Shown piece after piece: positions 29,824 to 56,044 of a stretch of 64,000 bases of DNA. Made by a program: the position numbers and the translations under genes. The stretch is taken from the NCBI GenBank assembly GCA_963827685.1, contig CAWHBU010000003.1:1088001-1152000 (forward strand). Reading direction: 5' to 3'. Origin of the DNA: an uncultured delta proteobacterium (GTDB lineage Bacteria > Desulfobacterota > BSN033 > UBA1163). The notes under the pieces were generated by a model. It did no database searches, was not told where the DNA came from, and was given only the letters and a program-made list of their open reading frames with translations. Within the stretch, counting starts at the first letter, position 1; each line of letters begins with the position of its first letter.

Positions 29824-30042
29824 ATGTGCTTAAGTGTTCCCGGAAAAATTGTAAAAATTAAAAACAACATGGCCAGAGTGGATGTCGGCGGCATGCTTAG
29901 GGATATCTCGCTGGACCTATGTCCAGAAGTTTCTCTCGGTGAATATGTCCTTATTCACGCAGGCTTTGCCATTCAAAAGGTTGACGAAGAAGAAGCTAAG
30001 GAGACGTTGGATCTTCTGAGAAAAATGGCAGGGGCGATATGA
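29824..30042 (+). CDS. hypC: Hydrogenase assembly chaperone HypC
   Basis: MCLSVP, YVLIHAGFAI. Confidence 0.97.
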   Translation: MCLSVPGKIVKIKNNMARVDVGGMLRDISLDLCPEVSLGEYVLIHAGFAIQKVDEEEAKETLDLLRKMAGAI

Positions 30043-30084
30043 CTGTCCGCGAATCAAGGCAAAGACGCAGAATATTTTTGAATT

Positions 30085-30176
30085 GTCATTGCGAGCGATC
30101 CCGCCTTGGCGGGAGAGCGTGGCAATCTCATCTATTGATACAAGATTGCTTCGTCGCTATCGCTCCTCGCAATGAC
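30085..30176. repeat. REP-like palindrome GTCATTGCGAG...CTCGCAATGAC (related copies 32507-32651 and 47251-47347)
   Basis: Inverted termini with internal GCAATC/GATTGC arms. Confidence 0.8.
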
Positions 30177-30213
30177 AAATGCTTCTTGGACTTTTTATAA
30201 TTTATGGATTCAT

Positions 30214-31290
30214 ATGAAATTCATAGATGAATTCCGGGATAAAGAGATTGCGGAAGGACTAATTCAGAGGATTCATAAAACCTCTACCCGTCCCATCCAG
30301 TTGATGGAGGTTTGCGGAACGCATACGGTCTCCATCTTCCGGTATGGAATAAGAGGCCTCCTCCCGGAGCACGTCAGGCTTCTCTCCGGTCCGGGCTGCC
30401 CTGTCTGCGTCACTCCCAATAATGATATCGATCTGGCCATTGCCCTCTCAAGGCAAAAGGATGTCATCATCGTCACCTTCGGTGACATGATGAGAGTTCC
30501 TGGCTCGACATCAAGCCTGCAGAAAGAGAAGGCTGAGGGAAGGGATATCCGAATCATCTACTCTTCTCTTGAAGCATTAAAAATAGCGAAGGAAAATTTC
30601 GGGAAGAGAGTGGTCTTCTTGGCCATAGGTTTCGAAACCACTTCTCCTACCATAGCCGTGGCGATTCTCCGGGCCAAAGAAGAAAAGTTACAAAATCTCT
30701 CTTTCTTGAATAGTCAGAAACGGGTTCCCCCTGCCCTAATTGCCCTCTTACAATCGAAGCAGGTCAAGATCGATGGGTTTATCCTTCCAGGCCATGTGAG
30801 TACAATCATTGGGACAATTCCCTACCAATTCATTGCAAAAGAGTTTGGCCGACCTGCTGTGATCACAGGCTTTGAGCCTTTGGACATTCTTCAGGGTATT
30901 TGGATGCTCATCAAACAGATCGAAGAGAACCGCGCGGCCATTGAGATTCAGTATCGAAGAGTCGTCCACGAAGAGGGTAATCCAATTGCCTTGAGTAAGA
31001 TCGATCAAGTCTTCGAAAAAGGCGAAAGCCGGTGGAGGGGCATTGGATTGATACCGGATAGCGGATATCGTTTTAAAGAATCTTATAAAGAAATGGATGT
31101 TAGGAATTTCGATGTGGAAGTAGAGCCATCCAAGGAGCATCCTGAATGTCTTTGTGGAGAAGTGCTTCAGGGAATCAAGAGCCCTTTGGAATGTCGCCTG
31201 TTCAAAAAGCTCTGCCATCCAGAAAACCCAATTGGCGCTTGCATGGTCTCCATCGAAGGAACCTGTCACACCTACTTTAAGTTTTCATGA
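30214..31290 (+). CDS. hypD: Hydrogenase formation protein HypD
   Basis: MEVCGTHT, GPGCPVC, GFETT, PGHVS, CMVSIEGTC. Confidence 0.98.
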   Translation: MKFIDEFRDKEIAEGLIQRIHKTSTRPIQLMEVCGTHTVSIFRYGIRGLLPEHVRLLSGPGCPVCVTPNNDIDLAIALSRQKDVIIVTFGDMMRVPGSTSSLQKEKAEGRDIRIIYSSLEALKIAKENFGKRVVFLAIGFETTSPTIAVAILRAKEEKLQNLSFLNSQKRVPPALIALLQSKQVKIDGFILPGHVSTIIGTIPYQFIAKEFGRPAVITGFEPLDILQGIWMLIKQIEENRAAIEIQYRRVVHEEGNPIALSKIDQVFEKGESRWRGIGLIPDSGYRFKESYKEMDVRNFDVEVEPSKEHPECLCGEVLQGIKSPLECRLFKKLCHPENPIGACMVSIEGTCHTYFKFS

Positions 31291-31312
31291 AGCCCGACAT
31301 AACGTATAGACT

Positions 31313-31384
31313 TGTAGCGCCCCCATTTACTGGGGGCGAGGGGCGAATGGATAGAATTCGTCGGCAGTAAATGCCGACGCTACA
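31313..31384. repeat. REP-like TGTAGCG...CGCTACA double hairpin (related copies 6676-6735 and 53713-53775)
   Basis: Shared CGTCGGCA..TGCCGACG and GCCC..GGGC hairpins with GTAG ends. Confidence 0.75.
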
Positions 31385-31410
31385 AAAATTGAACAGAAGG
31401 TGAATAATTT

Positions 31411-32421
31411 ATGAGCGACGAAAAGATCCTTTTGGCCCACGGGAGTGGAGGAAAGCTTTCCCACGATCTGATTAAACAGATTCTTCTGCCTCAGTTCAGA
31501 AACCCTTTCCTCGAACCATTGGATGATAGTGCGAAGATCACCAATCAGCACGGATCAATTGCTTTTACGACGGATTCCTATGTGGTCAATCCCATTTTCT
31601 TTCCAGGCGGAGATATTGGGAAATTGGCCGTATGCGGGACAGTGAACGATCTCTCAATGGTGGGGGCTACTCCATCGTATCTTAGCCTTTCGCTGATTGT
31701 TGAAGAAGGGTTCTCCATCGAGCTTCTCAAACAGATCGTCTCTTCGATCCATGAAACAGCTGAAAAGGCAAGAGTGAGCATTGTTACAGGTGATACCAAA
31801 GTAGTGGAACATGGCGCAGCAGATCAATTGTTTATTAATACTGCAGGGATCGGATGGGTCAGGCCGGGGATCAACCTTTCAGGGATCAATGCCAGATCAG
31901 GAGATAAAATTCTTTTAAGCGGTTACCTGGGAGATCACGAGATGGCTGTCCTCTCCCAAAGGGAGGGATTTAGATTCCAGGGTGAATTAAAAAGTGATTG
32001 CGCTCCATTAAACGATCTGGTCGGGAAAATGCTCGATGCCTGCCCTTCCATTCGCTGTATGCGGGACCCCACACGCGGCGGTCTGGCCACAACCCTCAAC
32101 GAGATTGCATCGATGTCCAATGTGGGGATGGTGATTGAAGAAGAAAAGGTTCCTGTACGAGAATCGGTCAAGGGAATCTCTGAGCTCTTGGGTTTGGACC
32201 CGCTCTATCTTGCTAATGAAGGGAAATTGATCGCCATCTGCCCACCCAACGAAGAAAAGCGGTTGTTGGAGATAATGAAAAGCCACCCCCTCGGCAGAAA
32301 CGCGGAAATCATTGGAAGAGTGACTGAGGAAAATCGAAAGAGAGTGACTCTCCACACATTGATCGGTGGCCACCGAATTCTGGATATGTTATCCGGTGGT
32401 CAGTACCCGAGGATCTGCTAA
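31411..32421 (+). CDS. hypE: Carbamoyl dehydratase HypE
   Basis: HGSGG, TTDSYVV, RDPTRGG, C-terminal PRIC. Confidence 0.98.
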   Translation: MSDEKILLAHGSGGKLSHDLIKQILLPQFRNPFLEPLDDSAKITNQHGSIAFTTDSYVVNPIFFPGGDIGKLAVCGTVNDLSMVGATPSYLSLSLIVEEGFSIELLKQIVSSIHETAEKARVSIVTGDTKVVEHGAADQLFINTAGIGWVRPGINLSGINARSGDKILLSGYLGDHEMAVLSQREGFRFQGELKSDCAPLNDLVGKMLDACPSIRCMRDPTRGGLATTLNEIASMSNVGMVIEEEKVPVRESVKGISELLGLDPLYLANEGKLIAICPPNEEKRLLEIMKSHPLGRNAEIIGRVTEENRKRVTLHTLIGGHRILDMLSGGQYPRIC

Positions 32422-32775
32422 CACTCAATTCGTTGCAGCGTTGAGTTTCGACATCGATCGATAGAACCAGTTATGAGAGGTGATCCAAATCCCGATTTAG
32501 GATACGGTCTTTGCGAGCGAAGCGAAGCAATCTCGCTTTTCGCGATGAGATTGCCACGCCTGCGTGCCGGAACGTTTGGCTGCACATATCTGCTTCATAA
32601 AGACAAGCACTTCGGCGTGCAGGCACGCACCTTTCAGGTGCTCGCAATGACGGATTGAGAAAGGGCTTCCCTTTTCTAAATCGGAATTTGGGGGTGATGC
32701 TTCACCTGACAGGCAATGTCAAATATAACATTAACTCCTTCCTGAAGTAAAGTATGCACGATTTGGGGTGCTGTC

Positions 32776-33597
32776 CTAATTTGCCCTCTCAATTAAATCC
32801 CTGATAGACCAAAGTTCCTTTGTCACGCCTGCCGCCATTGCTGGGCTTATCCTCAATGTGCTATGAATCCTCACAAAATTGTAATGGGTGAAATGAAGGG
32901 CCACAGCCGCTTTCAGGTTTTCAAGCTTCTTGCTAAAGGCATTGGTTAAACGGGTAAACCGTCGCATTTGCATCCTGACAGTTAGGTTCTGCCTTTCCAC
33001 AAACGAAGTACAAATCTTATTCAAATTCGGATTTCCCGTAATATACTCTTTTAGGACGGAAACGACCCTTGGAGGACTGTATCTACCCGGCCCAATGGGT
33101 TCAGCCTCATAGGACTTTACGATCTGCCCATAATCAATGTCTGCACCAAAGACCGCTTCAACAGCTTCCACATAAGCTTTTAGCTTATCAGAACTTAATT
33201 GAATCCGATTGCTAAGACGGGATGATAAATCAGAAATAAAAGCCTGAGCGGTAGGCAGATCACGTTTTCCAACCCTATAAGTAGGGATTAATTTTGTTTC
33301 TGAATCAAGGGCAATGAAGGTGTAAAAATCGCCCACCTTATCAGGATCGTCATTTAAACCGACGTGGCGCTGTTTCTTTCCCACAAATGACCAGACTTCA
33401 TCAACTTCAATGTCCTTACAGGTTAAATTACGCATGGAGGTATCCATGATCTTTTCACAGGTATTGCCAACAGTAACCATAAGGCGCATGATAGTATCTT
33501 GATGAACTCCTGTCATTCGCTCAATAGAACGAATCGAAGACCCTTCAACTAACCCTCCAATGACCATCTCTTGTTTTTCGGTTTTTAAAATATTCAT
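32776..33597 (-). CDS. IS1-like DDE transposase
   Basis: N-terminal HTH (GSSIRSIERMTGVH); DEVWSFVGKK, SSD, TSFVERQNLTVR, RFTRLTNAFSKK, HYNF. Confidence 0.9.
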   Translation of the reverse strand: MNILKTEKQEMVIGGLVEGSSIRSIERMTGVHQDTIMRLMVTVGNTCEKIMDTSMRNLTCKDIEVDEVWSFVGKKQRHVGLNDDPDKVGDFYTFIALDSETKLIPTYRVGKRDLPTAQAFISDLSSRLSNRIQLSSDKLKAYVEAVEAVFGADIDYGQIVKSYEAEPIGPGRYSPPRVVSVLKEYITGNPNLNKICTSFVERQNLTVRMQMRRFTRLTNAFSKKLENLKAAVALHFTHYNFVRIHSTLRISPAMAAGVTKELWSIRDLIERAN

Positions 33598-33631
33598 TGC
33601 AATCCTCCCAAGAATTTGATATAAACCAACA

Positions 33632-33702
33632 TGGAGCGCAGGGGACTTGAACCCCTAACATCCGGGTGTAAATCCCAGTGTTGGCTGCCCATTCCGCGCC
33701 CC
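33632..33702 (-). ncRNA. tRNA-like RNA, 71 nt, with non-canonical D region
   Basis: Acceptor GGGGCGC/GCGCTCC+A; T-arm AGGGG-TTCAAGT-CCCCT; anticodon-like arm CTGGG-ATTTACA-CCCGG. Confidence 0.7.
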
Positions 33703-33779
33703 ACGAAGTTTTTGGGGAACAGGTTGCATAAAAGCCTATTCCCCTTTTATTTTGTCTTGTTATTTCAATCATGTAAGAT

Positions 33780-33808
33780 ATTATAATAAATTTATTATAA
33801 TATGTCAA
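33780..33808 (-). promoter_or_regulatory. Consensus sigma70 promoter facing the tRNA-like RNA and transposase, overlapped by a 24-bp palindrome
   Basis: Minus strand TTGACA-17 nt-TATAAT; palindrome TATTATAATAAATTTATTATAATA at 33779-33802. Confidence 0.8.
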
Positions 33809-33849
33809 GAAAAAAATGCTTGCAAATATAATTTTTTTATTATATCTTT

Positions 33850-34227
33850 ATGAAGGAATGGACATTCAAGGTATTTATTGACGAAAACGGAGATTGCGAT
33901 TTTCTTATATGGAGAAAAGAGCTCTCCCCGAAAGCGCGTAAAAGAATGGATCAAATAATCGATCACATGGAAATTACAAAAGACTGGACTCAGACGGCTT
34001 ATTTTAGGCCATTAACGGGTTACCCCGGAATATGTGAAATCCGATTTATTGTATCAAACATACAGTATAGACCCTTAGGATGTCGTGGACCAGACCCAGG
34101 AATGTTTACTTTACTGGTTGGGGCAAAAGAACAGGGTGATGAATTTATACCAAAAGGTGCTCTGGATTTAGCTACCAGAAGACGTGCAATGGTTCTTACG
34201 GATAGGAGATATATCGATGACTATTAG
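33850..34227 (+). CDS. RelE/ParE (HigB-like) toxin
   Basis: Size; FRPLTGYPGICEIRF..QYRPLG pattern; located upstream of an HTH gene. Confidence 0.75.
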   Translation: MKEWTFKVFIDENGDCDFLIWRKELSPKARKRMDQIIDHMEITKDWTQTAYFRPLTGYPGICEIRFIVSNIQYRPLGCRGPDPGMFTLLVGAKEQGDEFIPKGALDLATRRRAMVLTDRRYIDDY

Positions 34228-34849
34228 CGATAAACGTAAAAAAAGACTTTTTGAAGAATTGAAGAATAAAGAAGAGAGAGATGCTTATCTGTCATCCAGT
34301 GTTGATGTGGGCGTGGCTTTTCAGATCCGAGCACTACGAGAACAAAGAAACTGGAATCAAACAAAATTAGCCGACGAAGCGAAGATGCAACAAGAGAGAA
34401 TATCAACGCTTGAAAACCCAAGCCACTCTCCTACCTTAGCAACACTTAAAAAATTAGCCAGCGCATTTGATGTTGGGTTGATTGTTAGATTTGCTCCTAT
34501 AAGCGAATTAGTTAAATATGAATTAAATCTACACTCAAAGTCACTGGAAGTTCCAAGTTTTGAAGAAGAGGAATATTTTAAAGAAAAGCCAATATATGAA
34601 TCATCCAAAATTTTCCTGACTGCTAATATACAGGGGACAAGCCACACTCCTACTGTAGAAGCAACACTCTTGAAAGATCATTATTCCAAAGATGCCAGCG
34701 ACCAACCGGGTTCCAAAGATGTTTATTCTCAGTACATGGGGCGACCAAAGGTTGCCCAGATCTCTGATTACTTCCGCAAAAAAAAGCCTGAATCTGAGAA
34801 TGAGGAAAAGAGTTCTATCCAAGATAAGATATCAAATGTTGGAGGATAG
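34217..34849 (+). CDS. Xre/HigA-like HTH antitoxin with long C-terminal extension
   Basis: QIRALREQRNWNQTKLA..QERISTLE..PTLATLKKLASAFD; AGGAG RBS before MTISDK. Confidence 0.82.
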   Translation: MTISDKRKKRLFEELKNKEERDAYLSSSVDVGVAFQIRALREQRNWNQTKLADEAKMQQERISTLENPSHSPTLATLKKLASAFDVGLIVRFAPISELVKYELNLHSKSLEVPSFEEEEYFKEKPIYESSKIFLTANIQGTSHTPTVEATLLKDHYSKDASDQPGSKDVYSQYMGRPKVAQISDYFRKKKPESENEEKSSIQDKISNVGG

Positions 34850-34851
34850 CC

Positions 34852-35508
34852 ATGAAGTTATTATCCGTTAATCTTGCAAGAACTATTTTATTGGGTCCTA
34901 TGTCAGATATAAACCCACGGGGGGCAAGTCTTAATTCTATTTTATTCCCATTTTTGGTGAATACATACAAGTTTAAGAAAGTACCTTCTTTAACAGAAAT
35001 TCCCGATTTGTCGAAGGGGGTAAAGTTTGAACTCGGAGATTTTGATATTGGGGGTGATTATCCAATTGTTGTGAATCTCACCTTTTATAACGATGGTGTA
35101 ATTGCAGATAGCGGTTCATCTACTAATCATACCGATGCCTTTTTGGAAGACATGTATGCTAAGTTTTCCGAACTTTTCAAAATGCCTCCGCCTGAATCCA
35201 TAATAAGAAAAAGAGTCTACTTGAGCCAACTCTATGTATCTACGGATAGATCTTTAGAAATAATTAATCCAAAAATAAAACTGATCTCACAATATTTGTC
35301 TGAAACTGTTGAGGAAGGAAACGAACTTTTCGAGCTTGGCGGAATATCTTTTTGGCCCGATCAAATAAGTAAGGTTCCTCCTGCTCCATTTAGGTTTGAA
35401 AGGAAAATTGGTGCGCCTTTTTCCGAAAATAGATACTATTCGGTGGCTCCGCTTTCAACAGATAAACATCTTGAATTGCTTGATAAATTGGAGAGCATCC
35501 TATCTTAA
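34852..35508 (+). CDS. Hypothetical protein, third gene of the TA operon
   Basis: 218 aa; starts 2 nt after the HTH stop; GGAGG RBS. Confidence 0.75.
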   Translation: MKLLSVNLARTILLGPMSDINPRGASLNSILFPFLVNTYKFKKVPSLTEIPDLSKGVKFELGDFDIGGDYPIVVNLTFYNDGVIADSGSSTNHTDAFLEDMYAKFSELFKMPPPESIIRKRVYLSQLYVSTDRSLEIINPKIKLISQYLSETVEEGNELFELGGISFWPDQISKVPPAPFRFERKIGAPFSENRYYSVAPLSTDKHLELLDKLESILS

Positions 35509-35540
35509 AACAAAATAAAAGCAAAACCGCAGAAACCTCC

Positions 35541-35822
35541 ATTAAAGCACTAACAAAGGCTATTCTCGATCTCCACGGCTGTAAGGCAACGTGGATTAAA
35601 TCTACCCCAGTTAAAGAAGTATTTGAGGGCGAAACCGTTTGGGAAGGGGTTGTTCAGGTATTCGAGATTGACCACCCCAAATCTAAGCTTTGTTATGCGT
35701 GGTCTTATGGGTTGGATAAATCAAAGAAGAGGCGATTCTTTACGGTGCTGCATCAAGGGGTTGTTGATTCACCAGAAAAAGCGGTAAGGGCAGCGATTAT
35801 GAAAGAAGTAAAGTCGTCTTGA
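35541..35822 (+). pseudogene. About 93-codon protein-like frame lacking an ATG/GTG/TTG start
   Basis: IKALTKAILDLHGCKATWIKSTPVKEVFEGETVWEGVVQVFEIDHPKSKLCYAWS...DSPEKAVRAAI; frame open from 35487. Confidence 0.55.
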
Positions 35823-36487
35823 CAGTCCGTATAAGGCTTGATAGAATAAGACACTCTAATTAGCTTAGAATGATTCTTAATAGGTGAAGAAATCCGATGG
35901 CGGTCGGATTTCTTCTATTTTCATGATTTGGGATACTTCTAAATCATATCATAGGAGTATGCCCAAATGCAAGCCCTTTTTTATAATGAACAAAAAATAA
36001 GAGCAGGTAATTGTATGACTTTTGCACGAGTCCCATGTGAAACAAAAGGTAAAATTGATAAAGCTGGTAAGATTCTTGTGGAAGGAAATGGAAATTATGA
36101 TGAAGAATCTTTCGCTAAGGCAATAGATTTGGTTAATAGTTGGAGAGCTTGTCATGCTTATCCAATAAATACCTTTCAAGCTACACTTAGGGTAAAGCTG
36201 AAAAGTGGATTATATGGACGTAACCCAATAGCTGCACAAAGATTAAAACGAATGCCAACCATCATTGATAAGCTTCGACAATACCCTGCTATGCAACTAA
36301 CAACCATGCAGGATATCGGTGGGCTTAGGGCTATTCTTGATACGGTCAAGAATGTTTATAAATTGGCACAAGATTATCGAGATAATAAGGGACTCTTGCA
36401 TGAATTAGTTCAGGAGAAGGATTATATTGAGAACGCACGAGATGAAGATGGATATAGAAGTTTACACATGATTTATAAATACAAGAA

Positions 36488-37815
36488 CAGTGCTGTCCGG
36501 TTAAGAATTGAATAAAGACAATTGGTTACAGAAATCGGGTTTTTTAATATCATCAAAAAAACCTGAAAGCACCTGATAAATGGGGTTTTTCTCGAATAAA
36601 GTGATGCTCAAGATTTGCAGGATTTCGTTGAGACTTCGGTCGAGTTTCAATTCTTTCTTGATAATAGCGGGGAGAACATAAATACTTATTGCAATCCAGA
36701 TTTGGGTTTTCACTGCATTCTCGGAGGTTCCATAAAAGGATTTGATTCGAAGGTGCTGTTTGATCCACTTGAAGAAGAGTTCCACCTGCCAGCGGCATTT
36801 GTACAGTTGGGTAATGGTCAGAGGGTTGAGCATAAAATTGTTTGTCAGGAATACGAATCGTTTGGACGTTACGATATCGAAATAGCTGATCCGGCGAAGG
36901 GGATCGGGATATTCCTGGGAGGTCTTTGGGCCATTGAGAAGAATCGTTTGATCGCTTCGGAGTCCCGTGGTTTTGTCGACGAGGCGGTAGCTTCGACGAG
37001 TGCAATCGAGATTTCTCTTGGCGCGAATGATAAAGAAGGCTGAATGGAGGGCGAACACATACAGGCGGGCAAAATCGATATAGCCGCGATCCATAATGTA
37101 AAAAGAGCCAGGCTCTAAGATCAATTGGTCGAGGAGATTGACGTCGTGAACATTGCCTTCGGTAACGCGGATAAAGCAGGGGATACTGCCATGGAGGTCC
37201 ATCAGCGTATGGAGTTTGATGGCGCCTTTGCGTTTGCGAAAATGGGCCCAAGGAAAAAGCGAGAGACAGAGATCGATCGTCGTCGAATCGAAGGCATAGG
37301 CGGCTTGATCCAAGAGCACGCCGAAATCTTCTTTGGCATACAGGTACCTTGCTCTTCGGATCAGCACTTGAGCAAAATCGGCGTAGATCCGCCAGTCTCT
37401 GTTTTCGTTGGCTTCGGCCAGGGTGCTTCGAGCGACTTTGCTCCGAATCCCTACATGGTAGAGTTTGGACTGCAAGGCGCGCAAGCACGTTTCGGTCTCG
37501 CGAAGACTTTCTCGGTAAGTAAGCTGGGCGAAGGCCATGCAGAGAAATTGATCGAAACAGGAAAATCTTCGGACTCGGTAATTGCCTTGGTATCTTCGCA
37601 CACACTTGTTGAATTCGTGTTTGGGCAGAAAGTTTATGAGTTGTGAAAAGATCATTCGTCCACAGTGCATTGACCATTCCTTTCCACTCTGAGATGGAAG
37701 TATTATGGCCAATAAAAGCAGACGATCTGAAATCGAAAACGGTCATTGTTATGTTTATCCTATTAACATTGTTTAACATTGTCAGTTTTTAAAAATCCTT
37801 AACCGGACAGTACTG
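36488..37815 (-). mobile_element. IS4-family insertion sequence, 1328 bp
   Basis: TIRs CAGTGCTGTCCGGTTAAG / CTTAACCGGACAGTACTG; 9-bp TSD ATACAAGAA (36479-36487 and 37816-37824). Confidence 0.94.
36501..37670 (-). CDS. IS4-family transposase
   Basis: DSTTIDL, MDRGY, YKCRWQVELFFKWIKQ (YREK motif). Confidence 0.95.
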   Translation of the reverse strand: MHCGRMIFSQLINFLPKHEFNKCVRRYQGNYRVRRFSCFDQFLCMAFAQLTYRESLRETETCLRALQSKLYHVGIRSKVARSTLAEANENRDWRIYADFAQVLIRRARYLYAKEDFGVLLDQAAYAFDSTTIDLCLSLFPWAHFRKRKGAIKLHTLMDLHGSIPCFIRVTEGNVHDVNLLDQLILEPGSFYIMDRGYIDFARLYVFALHSAFFIIRAKRNLDCTRRSYRLVDKTTGLRSDQTILLNGPKTSQEYPDPLRRISYFDIVTSKRFVFLTNNFMLNPLTITQLYKCRWQVELFFKWIKQHLRIKSFYGTSENAVKTQIWIAISIYVLPAIIKKELKLDRSLNEILQILSITLFEKNPIYQVLSGFFDDIKKPDFCNQLSLFNS

Positions 37816-38545
37816 ATACAAGAATAAGAAAGTACCCCAATATAATGGTCTACGATTAGAGCTTCAGATTCGTACAAAAAAACAACATGCATGGGCTACC
37901 GCAGTGGAAACAATGGGGACCTTCTTAGGGCAAGCATTGAAGTCTCGGCAAGGGGATCGAGAATGGATCAATTTCTTTGCGGTTACTTCAGCGGCTTTTG
38001 CACATCTGGAAAGAAGTCCCTTAATAGCTCGTTATAGCCACTTATCTCGTAAAGAAACTTTTTCAGCAGTTGCAGAAGCAGAGGCAAACTTAGGTGCATT
38101 TGAGAAGATGGGTGCGTTTTCTGCTGCCGCTGATCAAATAGTAAAGCATAAACATGAAAAAAAGTGGTTTTATCATCTGATTGAGTTAAACTCCTTAGAG
38201 AAAACAGTTAACGTCACACCATACGACCGTGATAGTTTTGAACAAGCCTTGAAGGATTACGCAGAGCTTGAAGCAGAAGCGGCTAAAGGCAAGAAGATCG
38301 AGCCAGTTTTGGTTTCGGCTGGCCCGATAGATAAACTTCAGCAGGCATATCCTAACTTCTTTCTTGATATCACTGAATTTATAAGTATTGTTAATGGAAT
38401 TGTTGCAGAAGGCAGAAACAAATAAAAGACTACAATTTCTTCAATCTCCCCGTATCACCAAGCTGACTTATTGCTTCCGAAATCAAATTAGGACAGCACC
38501 CGATTTGGTAATCAAACGAGATCTGCCCAGCACAGGAGAATATAG

Positions 38546-55950: not shown

Positions 55951-56044
55951 GGAAGTGGAAAGGTTCTGGTGGGCCTCCTGGACTTCAAATCCAGTGACGG
56001 GCAGAGATGTCCGTGGTGGGTTCGATTCCCATGCACTTCCGCCA
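55951..56044 (+). tRNA. selC: tRNA-Sec (anticodon UCA)
   Basis: GGAAG start; anticodon arm CTGGA-CTTCAAA-TCCAG; long variable arm; TTCGATT T-loop; GCCA end. Confidence 0.96.

Follow-up and report, generated by a model that had tools for sequence, protein, structure and literature searches.

A conserved tRNA-Ala-like element in the transposase leader of an IS1-like transposon

The window, that is, the whole stretch of DNA that was analyzed, comprises 64,000 nucleotides from an uncultured delta proteobacterium (contig CAWHBU010000003.1, positions 1,088,001 to 1,152,000). On its minus strand, at 33632-33702, lies a tRNA-Ala-like element of 71 nt, which was delineated by direct reading, alignment to the Rfam tRNA model, folding, a covariance model built in this study (R1) and covariation among relatives. 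The element sits within an IS1-like transposon of 5,734 bp (32767-38500), upstream of the transposase gene. Read along the minus strand, the order is promoter, hairpin, tRNA-like element, a 34-nt spacer with a Shine-Dalgarno (SD) sequence, and the transposase ATG.

The promoter, located by a promoter scan at 33780-33808 (minus strand), is a sigma-70 consensus promoter, TTGACA-17-TATAAT, with a 12/12 match, and the promoter block is nearly identical in three loci with related transposases (L004, L006 and L040). In a fold of the 5' leader, the stretch that separates promoter and tRNA-like element contains a hairpin, GGGGAAUAGG...CCUGUUCCCC (33714-33744, minus strand), and relatives with the same type of leader have an equivalent hairpin 8-20 nt 5' of G1. 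The spacer (33598-33631) contains the SD sequence GGGAGGA at 33603-33609 (minus strand), found by direct reading, and its motif TATATCAAA..GGAGGATTGCA-ATG is kept in relatives. This layout agrees with a preliminary description of the locus, made from the sequence alone, which had placed the element between a consensus promoter and the transposase ribosome-binding site, 34 nt before the ATG. The promoter lies upstream of the element, and the scan picked up neither a promoter-like nor a terminator-like site in the stretch from the element to the ATG, which makes the tRNA-like sequence part of the transposase mRNA leader.

The transposase is encoded by a single open reading frame (ORF) of 273 amino acids at 32776-33597 (minus strand). 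It was provisionally assigned to the IS1-like DDE transposases by its match to the Pfam family DDE_Tnp_IS1 (PF03400; 33.5 bits, cut-off 24.1) and by its best NCBIfam match, IS1 (NF033558), which at 64.4 bits is under the cut-off of 100.

The sequence of the element, GGGGCGC-GGAAUGGGCAGCC-AACA-CUGGG-AUUUACA-CCCGG-A-UGUU-AGGGG-UUCAAGU-CCCCU-GCGCUCC-A, agrees with that given in the preliminary description. The acceptor stem has 7 bp (GGGGCGC/GCGCUCC) with G3:U70 and is followed by A73; the T stem is a perfect 5 bp (AGGGG/CCCCU) with a 7-nt T loop, UUCAAGU; and acceptor and T stems make up a 12-bp helix with a 7 + 5 split. The two stems, G3:U70 and A73 were reported earlier and hold on reading, as does the lack of an encoded CCA: the trailer after A73 is UGU, so that CCA would need to be added post-transcriptionally. 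The loop of the long central arm, AUUUACA, contains A32, U33, the UUA center, C37 and A38, again as first read, and the extension of this arm by AACA/UGUU that had been proposed is real, being backed by covariation at pairs 21:47 and 22:46. The earlier view that there is no proper D stem stands for the window copy in so far as only two pairs, G8-C20 and G9-C19, can form; a vestigial D arm does exist, and its stem has 4 bp in relatives. Compared with a canonical tRNA, the element has neither connectors 8, 9 and 26 nor a variable loop of 4 nt or more, and its helices abut without linkers. Position 37 is C, where a canonical tRNA has a purine, and the D stem of the window copy falls short of the canonical 3-4 bp.

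Taken alone, the window sequence is a borderline tRNA look-alike. The preliminary description had named tRNA detectors as a check. ARAGORN, run over the whole window, called no tRNA at 33632-33702 and no tmRNA anywhere in the window, and a search of the whole window at the Rfam gathering threshold did not report the element. The Rfam tRNA model (RF00005) aligned to it end to end with 25.0 bits (E = 0.0068, 551 nt searched), which is under its gathering score of 29. The only tRNA detected in the window by ARAGORN and by Rfam at gathering level was a tRNA-Sec at 55951-56044. The predicted fold of the 71-mer was more stable than that of shuffled sequences (z = -3.24), with 1 of 200 shuffles equally good.

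Relatives of the transposase were collected by a scan of genome contigs, in which at least 573 relatives were confirmed and 80 loci were kept, and by a more narrowly defined query of metagenome contigs, in which 106 relatives were confirmed and 80 loci were kept; loci from related genomes were added. R1 was built from 13 ungapped sequences of the family. Conservation was counted over loci with a transposase at least 64% identical to that of the window and with at least 150 nt of upstream sequence. A tRNA-like element precedes the transposase in 40 of the 44 qualifying loci, as 30 distinct sequences, with its 3' end 20-52 nt, mostly 33-37 nt, before the ATG. The 40 loci consist of 39 found by R1 and of L039, which is the same contig as L004, entered twice. 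Among the 44 loci, R1 missed the element in L140, L171, L146 and L045; L138 is without upstream sequence.

R1 scored the window element at 91.6 bits. Searches with the DNA sequence and with R1 found the element in a single copy in its own genome, where the seven other R1 matches (25-38 bits) are ordinary tRNAs. Among 121 related genomes, R1 matches of more than 50 bits were found in five (G000, G007, G010, G015 and G062), all directly 5' of a transposase, and six further matches, of about 41 bits, are ordinary genes for tRNA-Ala or tRNA-Lys.

The cargo genes beside the tRNA-like element vary, with Gp49/HTH and PDC-S33 genes in the window, DUF3800 in L032 and a NYN RNase in L036, and the only constant neighbor is the transposase. 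Because the cargo differs among loci, the action as a toxin decoy that had been suggested earlier is disfavored, and a link of the element to one specific toxin was rejected. The other two functions suggested there, a suppressor-like RNA and an RNase P/Z processing signal, are still candidates.

Covariation was assessed on an alignment of the 30 distinct sequences (A5), which was guided by the model and replaced a MAFFT alignment with misplaced 5' gaps; the 39 source sequences were taken because they had already matched in a preceding R1 search. Standard pairs were formed by 94.4% of the cells, compared with 82.7% in shuffles, none of 500 of which reached the observed value, and double-sided changes occur in 12 of the 21 pairs. 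Relatedness alone, even where no structure exists, can let sequences outscore their shuffles. Control structures slid by 1-3 columns paired in only 39-63% of cells, which together with the many double changes argues against an artifact.

The acceptor and T stems are paired in 100% of cells. Pairs G2-C71 and G4-C69 are invariant, pair 1:72 is G-C in 28 sequences and G:U in two, pairs 5:68, 6:67 and 7:66 change by compensatory substitution, and the fifth T-stem pair, 49:65, covaries (CG in 16, AU in 12 and UA in two sequences). The lower half, consisting of the D and central arms, is less well kept, with 84-89% of cells paired. Three of the four D-stem pairs covary, relatives having a 4-bp stem with the loop UGGGU (GGGU-UGGGU-ACCC, GAAU-UGGGU-AUUC or GAGU-UGGGU-ACUC), and G8 pairs with C20 in 27 sequences. 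At the base of the central arm, pair 21:47 is AU in 17 and CG in 10 sequences and pair 22:46 occurs as four pair types; in the middle of the arm, different subtypes have different bulge registers. Of two registers tried for the outer part of this arm, each fits part of the family, and none is claimed for the whole. Only 0-1 nt separates the central arm from the T arm. The fold deduced from the alignment is a cloverleaf with four helices that abut without connector nucleotides, in a tight four-way junction.

The sub-gathering Rfam score, the lack of an ARAGORN call and the degenerate D stem of the window copy are in keeping with chance resemblance, or with the decay of an ordinary tRNA gene into a pseudogene. 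This explanation is refuted by the conservation in 40 of 44 loci and by the strong covariation, and it retains next to no probability. The element is also present in a single copy, is always linked to the transposase and has at most 65% identity to any tRNA of its own genome: among the 49 tRNAs, the best global match is tRNA-Val (CAC), at 65%, and the three tRNA-Ala genes fall outside the top eight. A clean match to a decayed ordinary tRNA, which the preliminary description had regarded as evidence against a mimic, was therefore not found, while the conservation and covariation it had proposed to look for among the leaders of homologous transposases are both present. The comparative evidence thus makes the element tRNA-like far beyond chance, though the single sequence is borderline. 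Judged by this comparison of sequences, the element is conserved and its structure is under selection: it is a tRNA-Ala mimic that forms part of the transposase leader, as had been suggested, and not a pseudogene.

A second alternative places the function, if any, in the DNA: the element could be the relic of a tRNA gene that served as an insertion or recombination target, or a junction for cargo exchange, without a role as RNA. Some observations fit this. Among relatives with transposases less than 55% identical, 12 of 89 loci have a tRNA or tRNA-like gene on the same strand within 400 nt upstream; in L007 the end of the mobile element lies 13 nt after a tRNA-like gene; and among transposases about 90% identical to that of the window, cargo and leader types diverge up to the 5' end of the tRNA-like sequence. 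Compensatory changes that keep the helices, including G:U pairs, and an invariant G3:U70 would be unexpected for a DNA site or a neutral relic; in addition, the tRNA-like sequence lies inside the inverted repeats rather than at the target, and ARAGORN found no tRNA gene near the insertion site in the window. Covariation largely refutes this explanation, which is considered very improbable.

The alanine identity proposed in the preliminary description gained support from the relatives. Position 3:70 is G:U in all 30 distinct sequences and A73 is invariant. Since neither G-C nor A-U ever takes the place of the wobble pair, whereas other pairs of the helix covary, selection appears to act on the wobble itself. 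G3:U70 and A73 were also found in L059, L068, L079 and L104, beside transposases about 51% identical, where pair 4:69 differs; the first three of these loci come from Zixibacteria-type bins. G3:U70 is described as the main determinant for alanyl-tRNA synthetase (AlaRS) (PMC5389517). Furthermore, CCA directly follows A73 in seven of the 30 sequences, across several sequence types, which fits a free 3' end that can be charged.

The loop of the central arm is conserved as well. Its forms are NUUUACA (22 distinct sequences) and CCUUACA (four), both with the nominal anticodon UUA, CUCUACA (two; CUA), CUUCACA (one; UCA) and CUUGACA (one; UGA). Read as a 7-nt loop, the nominal anticodon is thus a stop anticodon in 29 of 30 sequences, with UUA, the center noted at the outset, in 26, CUA in two and UCA in one. 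The strictly conserved core is U-N-A/G-C-A. In four of the 30 sequences C stands in place of U33, and more distant members have G there; UUG is found in some distant members, and position 37 is C in nearly all sequences.

These anticodons raise the possibility that the RNA decodes, as a transposon-borne nonsense suppressor that inserts alanine at UAA and perhaps UAG codons and acts in trans, with the transposase merely co-transcribed. The alanine identity set, the CCA encoded in seven of 30 sequences and a strong promoter like that of a tRNA gene would suit such a role. The stop-only pattern is suggestive only, since it is statistically soft, consisting of three variant types with p ~0.13 by an estimate from nine possible single changes. 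In addition, decoding tRNAs have a purine at position 37, in contrast to the C37 found here; the RNA has neither connectors 8, 9 and 26 nor a variable loop, and its D stem counts just 2-4 bp; the loop conserves UUACA rather than a triplet, given the replacements of U33 and the UUG of distant members; and no in-frame stops were seen inside the transposases of close relatives. Published evidence points both ways: natural allo-tRNAs with G3:U70 and the anticodon UUA exist, and in Escherichia coli natural odd tRNAs with G3:U70 acted as amber suppressors after their anticodon had been replaced by CUA, inserting mainly alanine and serine, whereas several such RNAs, among them the irregular tRNA1 and allo-tRNA(UAU), are reported as inactive in translation tests (Mukai et al. 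2017, Nucleic Acids Res 45:2776, PMC5389517). On balance a decoding role is regarded as unlikely, if still a serious candidate.

Alternatively, the element might remain unprocessed in the mRNA and act in cis as a mimic that binds AlaRS, the helix-turn-helix (HTH) domain of the transposase or another tRNA-binding factor, and so sets translation or stability of the message. The thrS operator, which mimics a tRNA anticodon arm, provides an analogy. The short and rather fixed distance to the SD sequence and ATG, the transposase as sole constant neighbor and the conserved loop UUACA, which suggests sequence-specific recognition, are all consistent with such a mimic, but CCA right after A73 in seven of 30 sequences points to a free 3' end. 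A complement of the loop hexamer, with G:U allowed, was sought from -200 to +830 in 40 loci, and no consistently placed partner was found in the leader or ORF; scattered complementary sites occur at +138, +212 and +596 in 22-26 loci, and L042 has none. A purely cis-acting mimic seems rather improbable.

The constraint is strongest on the helix of acceptor and T stems, the T loop, the D-loop GG, G3:U70, A73 and the CCA present in some members, all of which are read by RNase P, RNase Z, the CCA-adding enzyme and AlaRS; the D-loop GG and the T loop could form an elbow. Since it is the "top half" of tRNA, the part on which these enzymes act, that is best kept, we infer that the RNA is excised and can be alanylated. 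The reading that we modestly favor is a functional tRNA-Ala mimic in the transposase leader that is processed and accepts alanine. In the proposed mechanism, the strong promoter of the element would transcribe the tRNA-like sequence as the 5' leader of the transposase mRNA, RNase P would cut at G1, a 3' nuclease such as RNase Z would cut after A73, the CCA-adding enzyme would supply CCA where it is not encoded, and AlaRS could charge the released RNA of about 71-74 nt. The same cuts would detach the transposase ORF and its 34-nt SD leader both from the upstream part, which is strongly transcribed, and from read-through out of the cargo. Excision would thereby set the 5' end of the transposase mRNA and uncouple this message from the consensus promoter, and transposase output would depend on tRNA-type processing ("tRNA punctuation").

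Several points weigh against this processed, alanine-accepting mimic. A search for sequencing runs that contain the sequence listed seven, none of them recorded as RNA. The related sequences are not independent, several metagenome loci being identical to each other, and A5 was fitted to the structure of the model, so that its pair counts are biased towards that structure. Thermodynamic folding of the single window sequence favors a non-cloverleaf pairing within the domain. The window copy has only two D-stem pairs, C37 and no CCA, which could impair its recognition by some enzymes. Finally, processing alone needs neither G3:U70 nor a conserved UUACA, and punctuation is therefore not the whole story.

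The proposed mechanism does not explain the conserved loop, and the released RNA may have a role in trans, either as a stop-codon or missense reader or as a protein-binding mimic. A broader proposal, which we put forward as doubtful, is that the transposon carries its own alanine-accepting mini-tRNA as a regulatory device, at once mRNA leader and charged trans-acting RNA, that would serve as an alanine-inserting stop-codon or missense reader or would report the state of tRNA processing and charging in the host. If so, transposition would be coupled to the physiology of translation, and the wider IS1-like family, whose members bear allo-tRNAs and further odd tRNAs at the equivalent site, would be a natural vehicle for the spread of code-bending tRNAs from phylum to phylum.

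The closest published relatives of the element appear to be the irregular tRNAs and allo-tRNAs of soil and sediment bacteria, which are likewise odd tRNA genes located by toxin-antitoxin genes and transposable elements. Allo-tRNAs have a long variable arm, in contrast to the window element, which is without this arm and without connectors and has a reduced D arm. The 12-bp acceptor branch of allo-tRNAs is split 8/4 or 9/3, compared with 7/5 in the window element, where pair 49:65 covaries. The niche is shared, in that the clade of transposases 57-62% identical bears, by our own reading, long-arm tRNA-like sequences of the 8/4 form before the ATG. According to the same work, irregular tRNA polycistrons and allo-tRNAs lie near toxin-antitoxin systems and an allo-tRNA(UAU) pseudogene overlaps a transposon-related ORF (Mukai et al. 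2017, PMC5389517), and a review of 2020 (PMC7609411) repeats the findings on irregular and allo-tRNAs. A fixed place in a transposase leader inside IS1-like inverted repeats is not stated in the passages of that 2017 article that were consulted. The literature search found no paper on a tRNA-like leader of an IS1-type transposase, the 2017 article and the review of 2020 being the only ones to come near the subject; the supplementary sequences of Mukai et al. (S5 and S6; tRNA0, tRNA1 and tRNA2) lay outside this comparison. What appears to be new is the connector-less 7/5 form with alanine identity, at a defined place in a defined transposon family.

The tRNA-like domain of tmRNA also combines G3:U70, A73, a T arm and a reduced D region, in a molecule that further comprises an mRNA-like domain, a tag ORF and pseudoknots. 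The window element resembles it in alanine identity, T arm, reduced D region and its GGGG start, the tmRNA of the same genome starting with GGGGGCG. It differs in having an anticodon-like arm and no mRNA-like domain, tag ORF or pseudoknots, and in its length of 71 nt compared with 355 nt. The tmRNA gene of the genome lies elsewhere (contig C6, 205779-206133).

In tRNA punctuation, RNase P and RNase Z cut at tRNA-shaped signals, for example in mitochondrial transcripts and in MALAT1-mascRNA. In Haloferax, tRNA-shaped t-elements have been described as signals used to release crRNAs (PMC7521656). The window element is like such signals in being a tRNA-shaped module within a longer transcript, directly 5' of another functional RNA, with the top half best kept. 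It is unlike them in its amino-acid identity set and conserved anticodon loop, neither of which punctuation signals need, and its cleavage is a prediction.

The host transposon resembles the IS1 family with passenger genes in a transposase that matches Pfam DDE_Tnp_IS1, short inverted repeats and 8-bp target duplication. In classical IS1 the transposase is controlled by a programmed frameshift between two ORFs, whereas this clade has a single ORF without an N-terminal zinc finger and with the tRNA-like leader in front. A full-text literature search for the subgroup name "ISMhu11" found no paper.

When odd tRNAs were noted in 2017 in the neighborhood of transposons and toxin-antitoxin genes, neither their genetic context nor their function was defined. 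The context is now fixed: a structurally selected tRNA-Ala mimic is the 5' leader of the transposase in a whole IS1-like clade of Desulfobacterota-type and other sediment and soil bacteria, and sister clades have other odd tRNAs at the corresponding site. This opens the questions whether tRNA enzymes control a transposase, whether mobile elements spread suppressor-like tRNAs, and what is the smallest tRNA body that RNase P, the CCA-adding enzyme and AlaRS can read. The compact scaffold of 68-71 nt may also interest tRNA engineers.

The ends of the transposon are perfect 17-bp terminal inverted repeats, GGTGCTGTCCTAATTTG, flanked by identical 8 bases, CGATTTGG. In relatives, the ends of the family are GGTAGTGTCCTAATTTG... 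at the far side of the cargo and ...AAATTAGGACACTACC directly 3' of the transposase stop codon. A search with the end motif of the family gave exactly two matches in the window, in inverted orientation, compared with 0.12 expected: one at the transposase end (32767-32783, plus strand), which holds the transposase stop TAG on the other strand, and one at the cargo end (38484-38500, minus strand). As both are flanked by CGATTTGG, which by direct reading forms a target-site duplication at 32759-32766 and 38501-38508, the element spans 32767-38500.

The cargo lies on the plus strand. A Gp49/HigB-like ORF (33850-34227; PF05973, E = 4.4e-4, below the family cut-off) and an HTH_3 ORF (34184-34849; PF01381, 44 bits) together occupy 33850-34849 and are likely to be a toxin-antitoxin pair. 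They are followed by an ORF of 218 amino acids (34852-35508) to which profile searches assigned no family. Two further parts belong to a RelA/SpoT-like candidate defense gene, PDC-S33, identified by PADLOC and by Pfam RelA_SpoT: the N-terminal part at 35967-36515 (profile positions 8-153, E = 1.1e-51) and the C-terminal part at 37904-38425 (profile positions 179-342, E = 7.3e-41). The gene is split by a nested IS4-family insertion sequence (36488-37815, minus strand) with 22-nt inverted repeats and a 403-amino-acid transposase (36501-37712; NCBIfam IS4, 257.7 bits).

Fourteen congeneric genomes were searched for the insertion site, and all six that hold the neighboring gene have an empty site, in which the hypE side adjoins the AMP-ligase side and which joins window position ~32431 to ~38506. 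The transposon is therefore an insertion in this genome, and it is recently mobile. The six empty sites also lack a repeat-rich stretch beside the transposon (~32432-32758), whose ORF translations hold ...IASLRSQRP... and which may be a separate small insertion; a similar string, CFVAIAPRNDK, was seen at 30039-30200.

Additional features were observed at the promoter and in the leaders. A perfect palindrome of 26 nt, ATATTATAATAAATTTATTATAATAT, at 33778-33803 (minus strand) reaches across the -10 hexamer and the spacer to the final base of the -35 hexamer, and other clades have palindromes at the same place in the promoter (CTTGAGCGCTCAAG; TGCAAGCA/TGCTTGCA). These palindromes are possible operators for autoregulation. 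Two types of leader were seen 5' of the tRNA-like element: the promoter and small hairpin of the window type, and a module with a strong SD sequence, a mini-ORF and a large hairpin. The mini-ORF starts from ATGAGAAGAG (ATG/GTG-AGA-AGA, encoding MRR...) and has 3 to ~28 codons, and the large two-tier hairpin, AATCGCC...GGCCATAAC...GGCGAT, ends 3-8 nt before G1 of the tRNA-like element. The module, for which no Rfam match was found, lies ~60-170 nt 5' of the tRNA-like element in L005, L119, L121, L122, L130, L134, L135, L139, L142, L042, L044, L184, L008 and L009. It is often preceded by an ORF of ~150 amino acids with a coiled-coil N-terminus, a winged-helix-like C-terminus and no Pfam match.

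More distant transposases have other tRNA-like genes in front. In the clade 57-62% identical, the metagenome loci L153, L156 and L158-L161 carry long-arm tRNA-like sequences of 90-91 nt, 20-31 nt before the ATG, with an 8-bp acceptor stem, a 4-bp T stem (an allo-tRNA layout by our own reading) and a loop with GUUACA; two of these six have G3:U70 with A73. Below 55% identity, the upstream tRNA or tRNA-like genes of the 12 loci mentioned above have odd anticodons or arms. The tandem pairs of odd tRNAs 5' of the transposase in L068 (2266-2420) and L079 (468-621), both from Zixibacteria-type bins, begin with a compact mimic of 68 nt with G3:U70, A73 and the loop GUUUGCA; the second member was called by ARAGORN as tRNA-???(tccc) in L068 and as tRNA-Thr(cgt) in L079, and a conserved T-rich stretch and the transposase promoter follow.

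A paralogue of the transposase with 53% identity is encoded in the same genome (G000) on contig C6 (locus L003), where Rfam found no match to the 71-nt element. At 323214-323288 (minus strand) of this contig, 5' of the paralogue and just beyond the limits of L003, ARAGORN called a 75-nt "tRNA-Ser(GCU)" with a short variable arm and no CCA, which is preceded by a TTGACA...TATATT promoter and followed by a run of T. A second IS4-type element with a 403-amino-acid ORF (~321800-323200) now separates this tRNA from the paralogous IS1-like transposase. Similar GCU tRNA-like genes lie 5' of transposases of the paralogue clade in L007, L008 and L009 (Rfam tRNA, 52-62 bits). Judged by A20, C35 and U36, these GCU tRNA-like sequences, including that of C6, look arginine-like rather than serine-like.

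Elsewhere in the window, the tRNA-Sec gene at 55951-56044 (plus strand) was called by ARAGORN and by Rfam (RF01852, 81.7 bits), and the same window contains hypC/D/E-like ORFs for hydrogenase maturation at 29824-32421.

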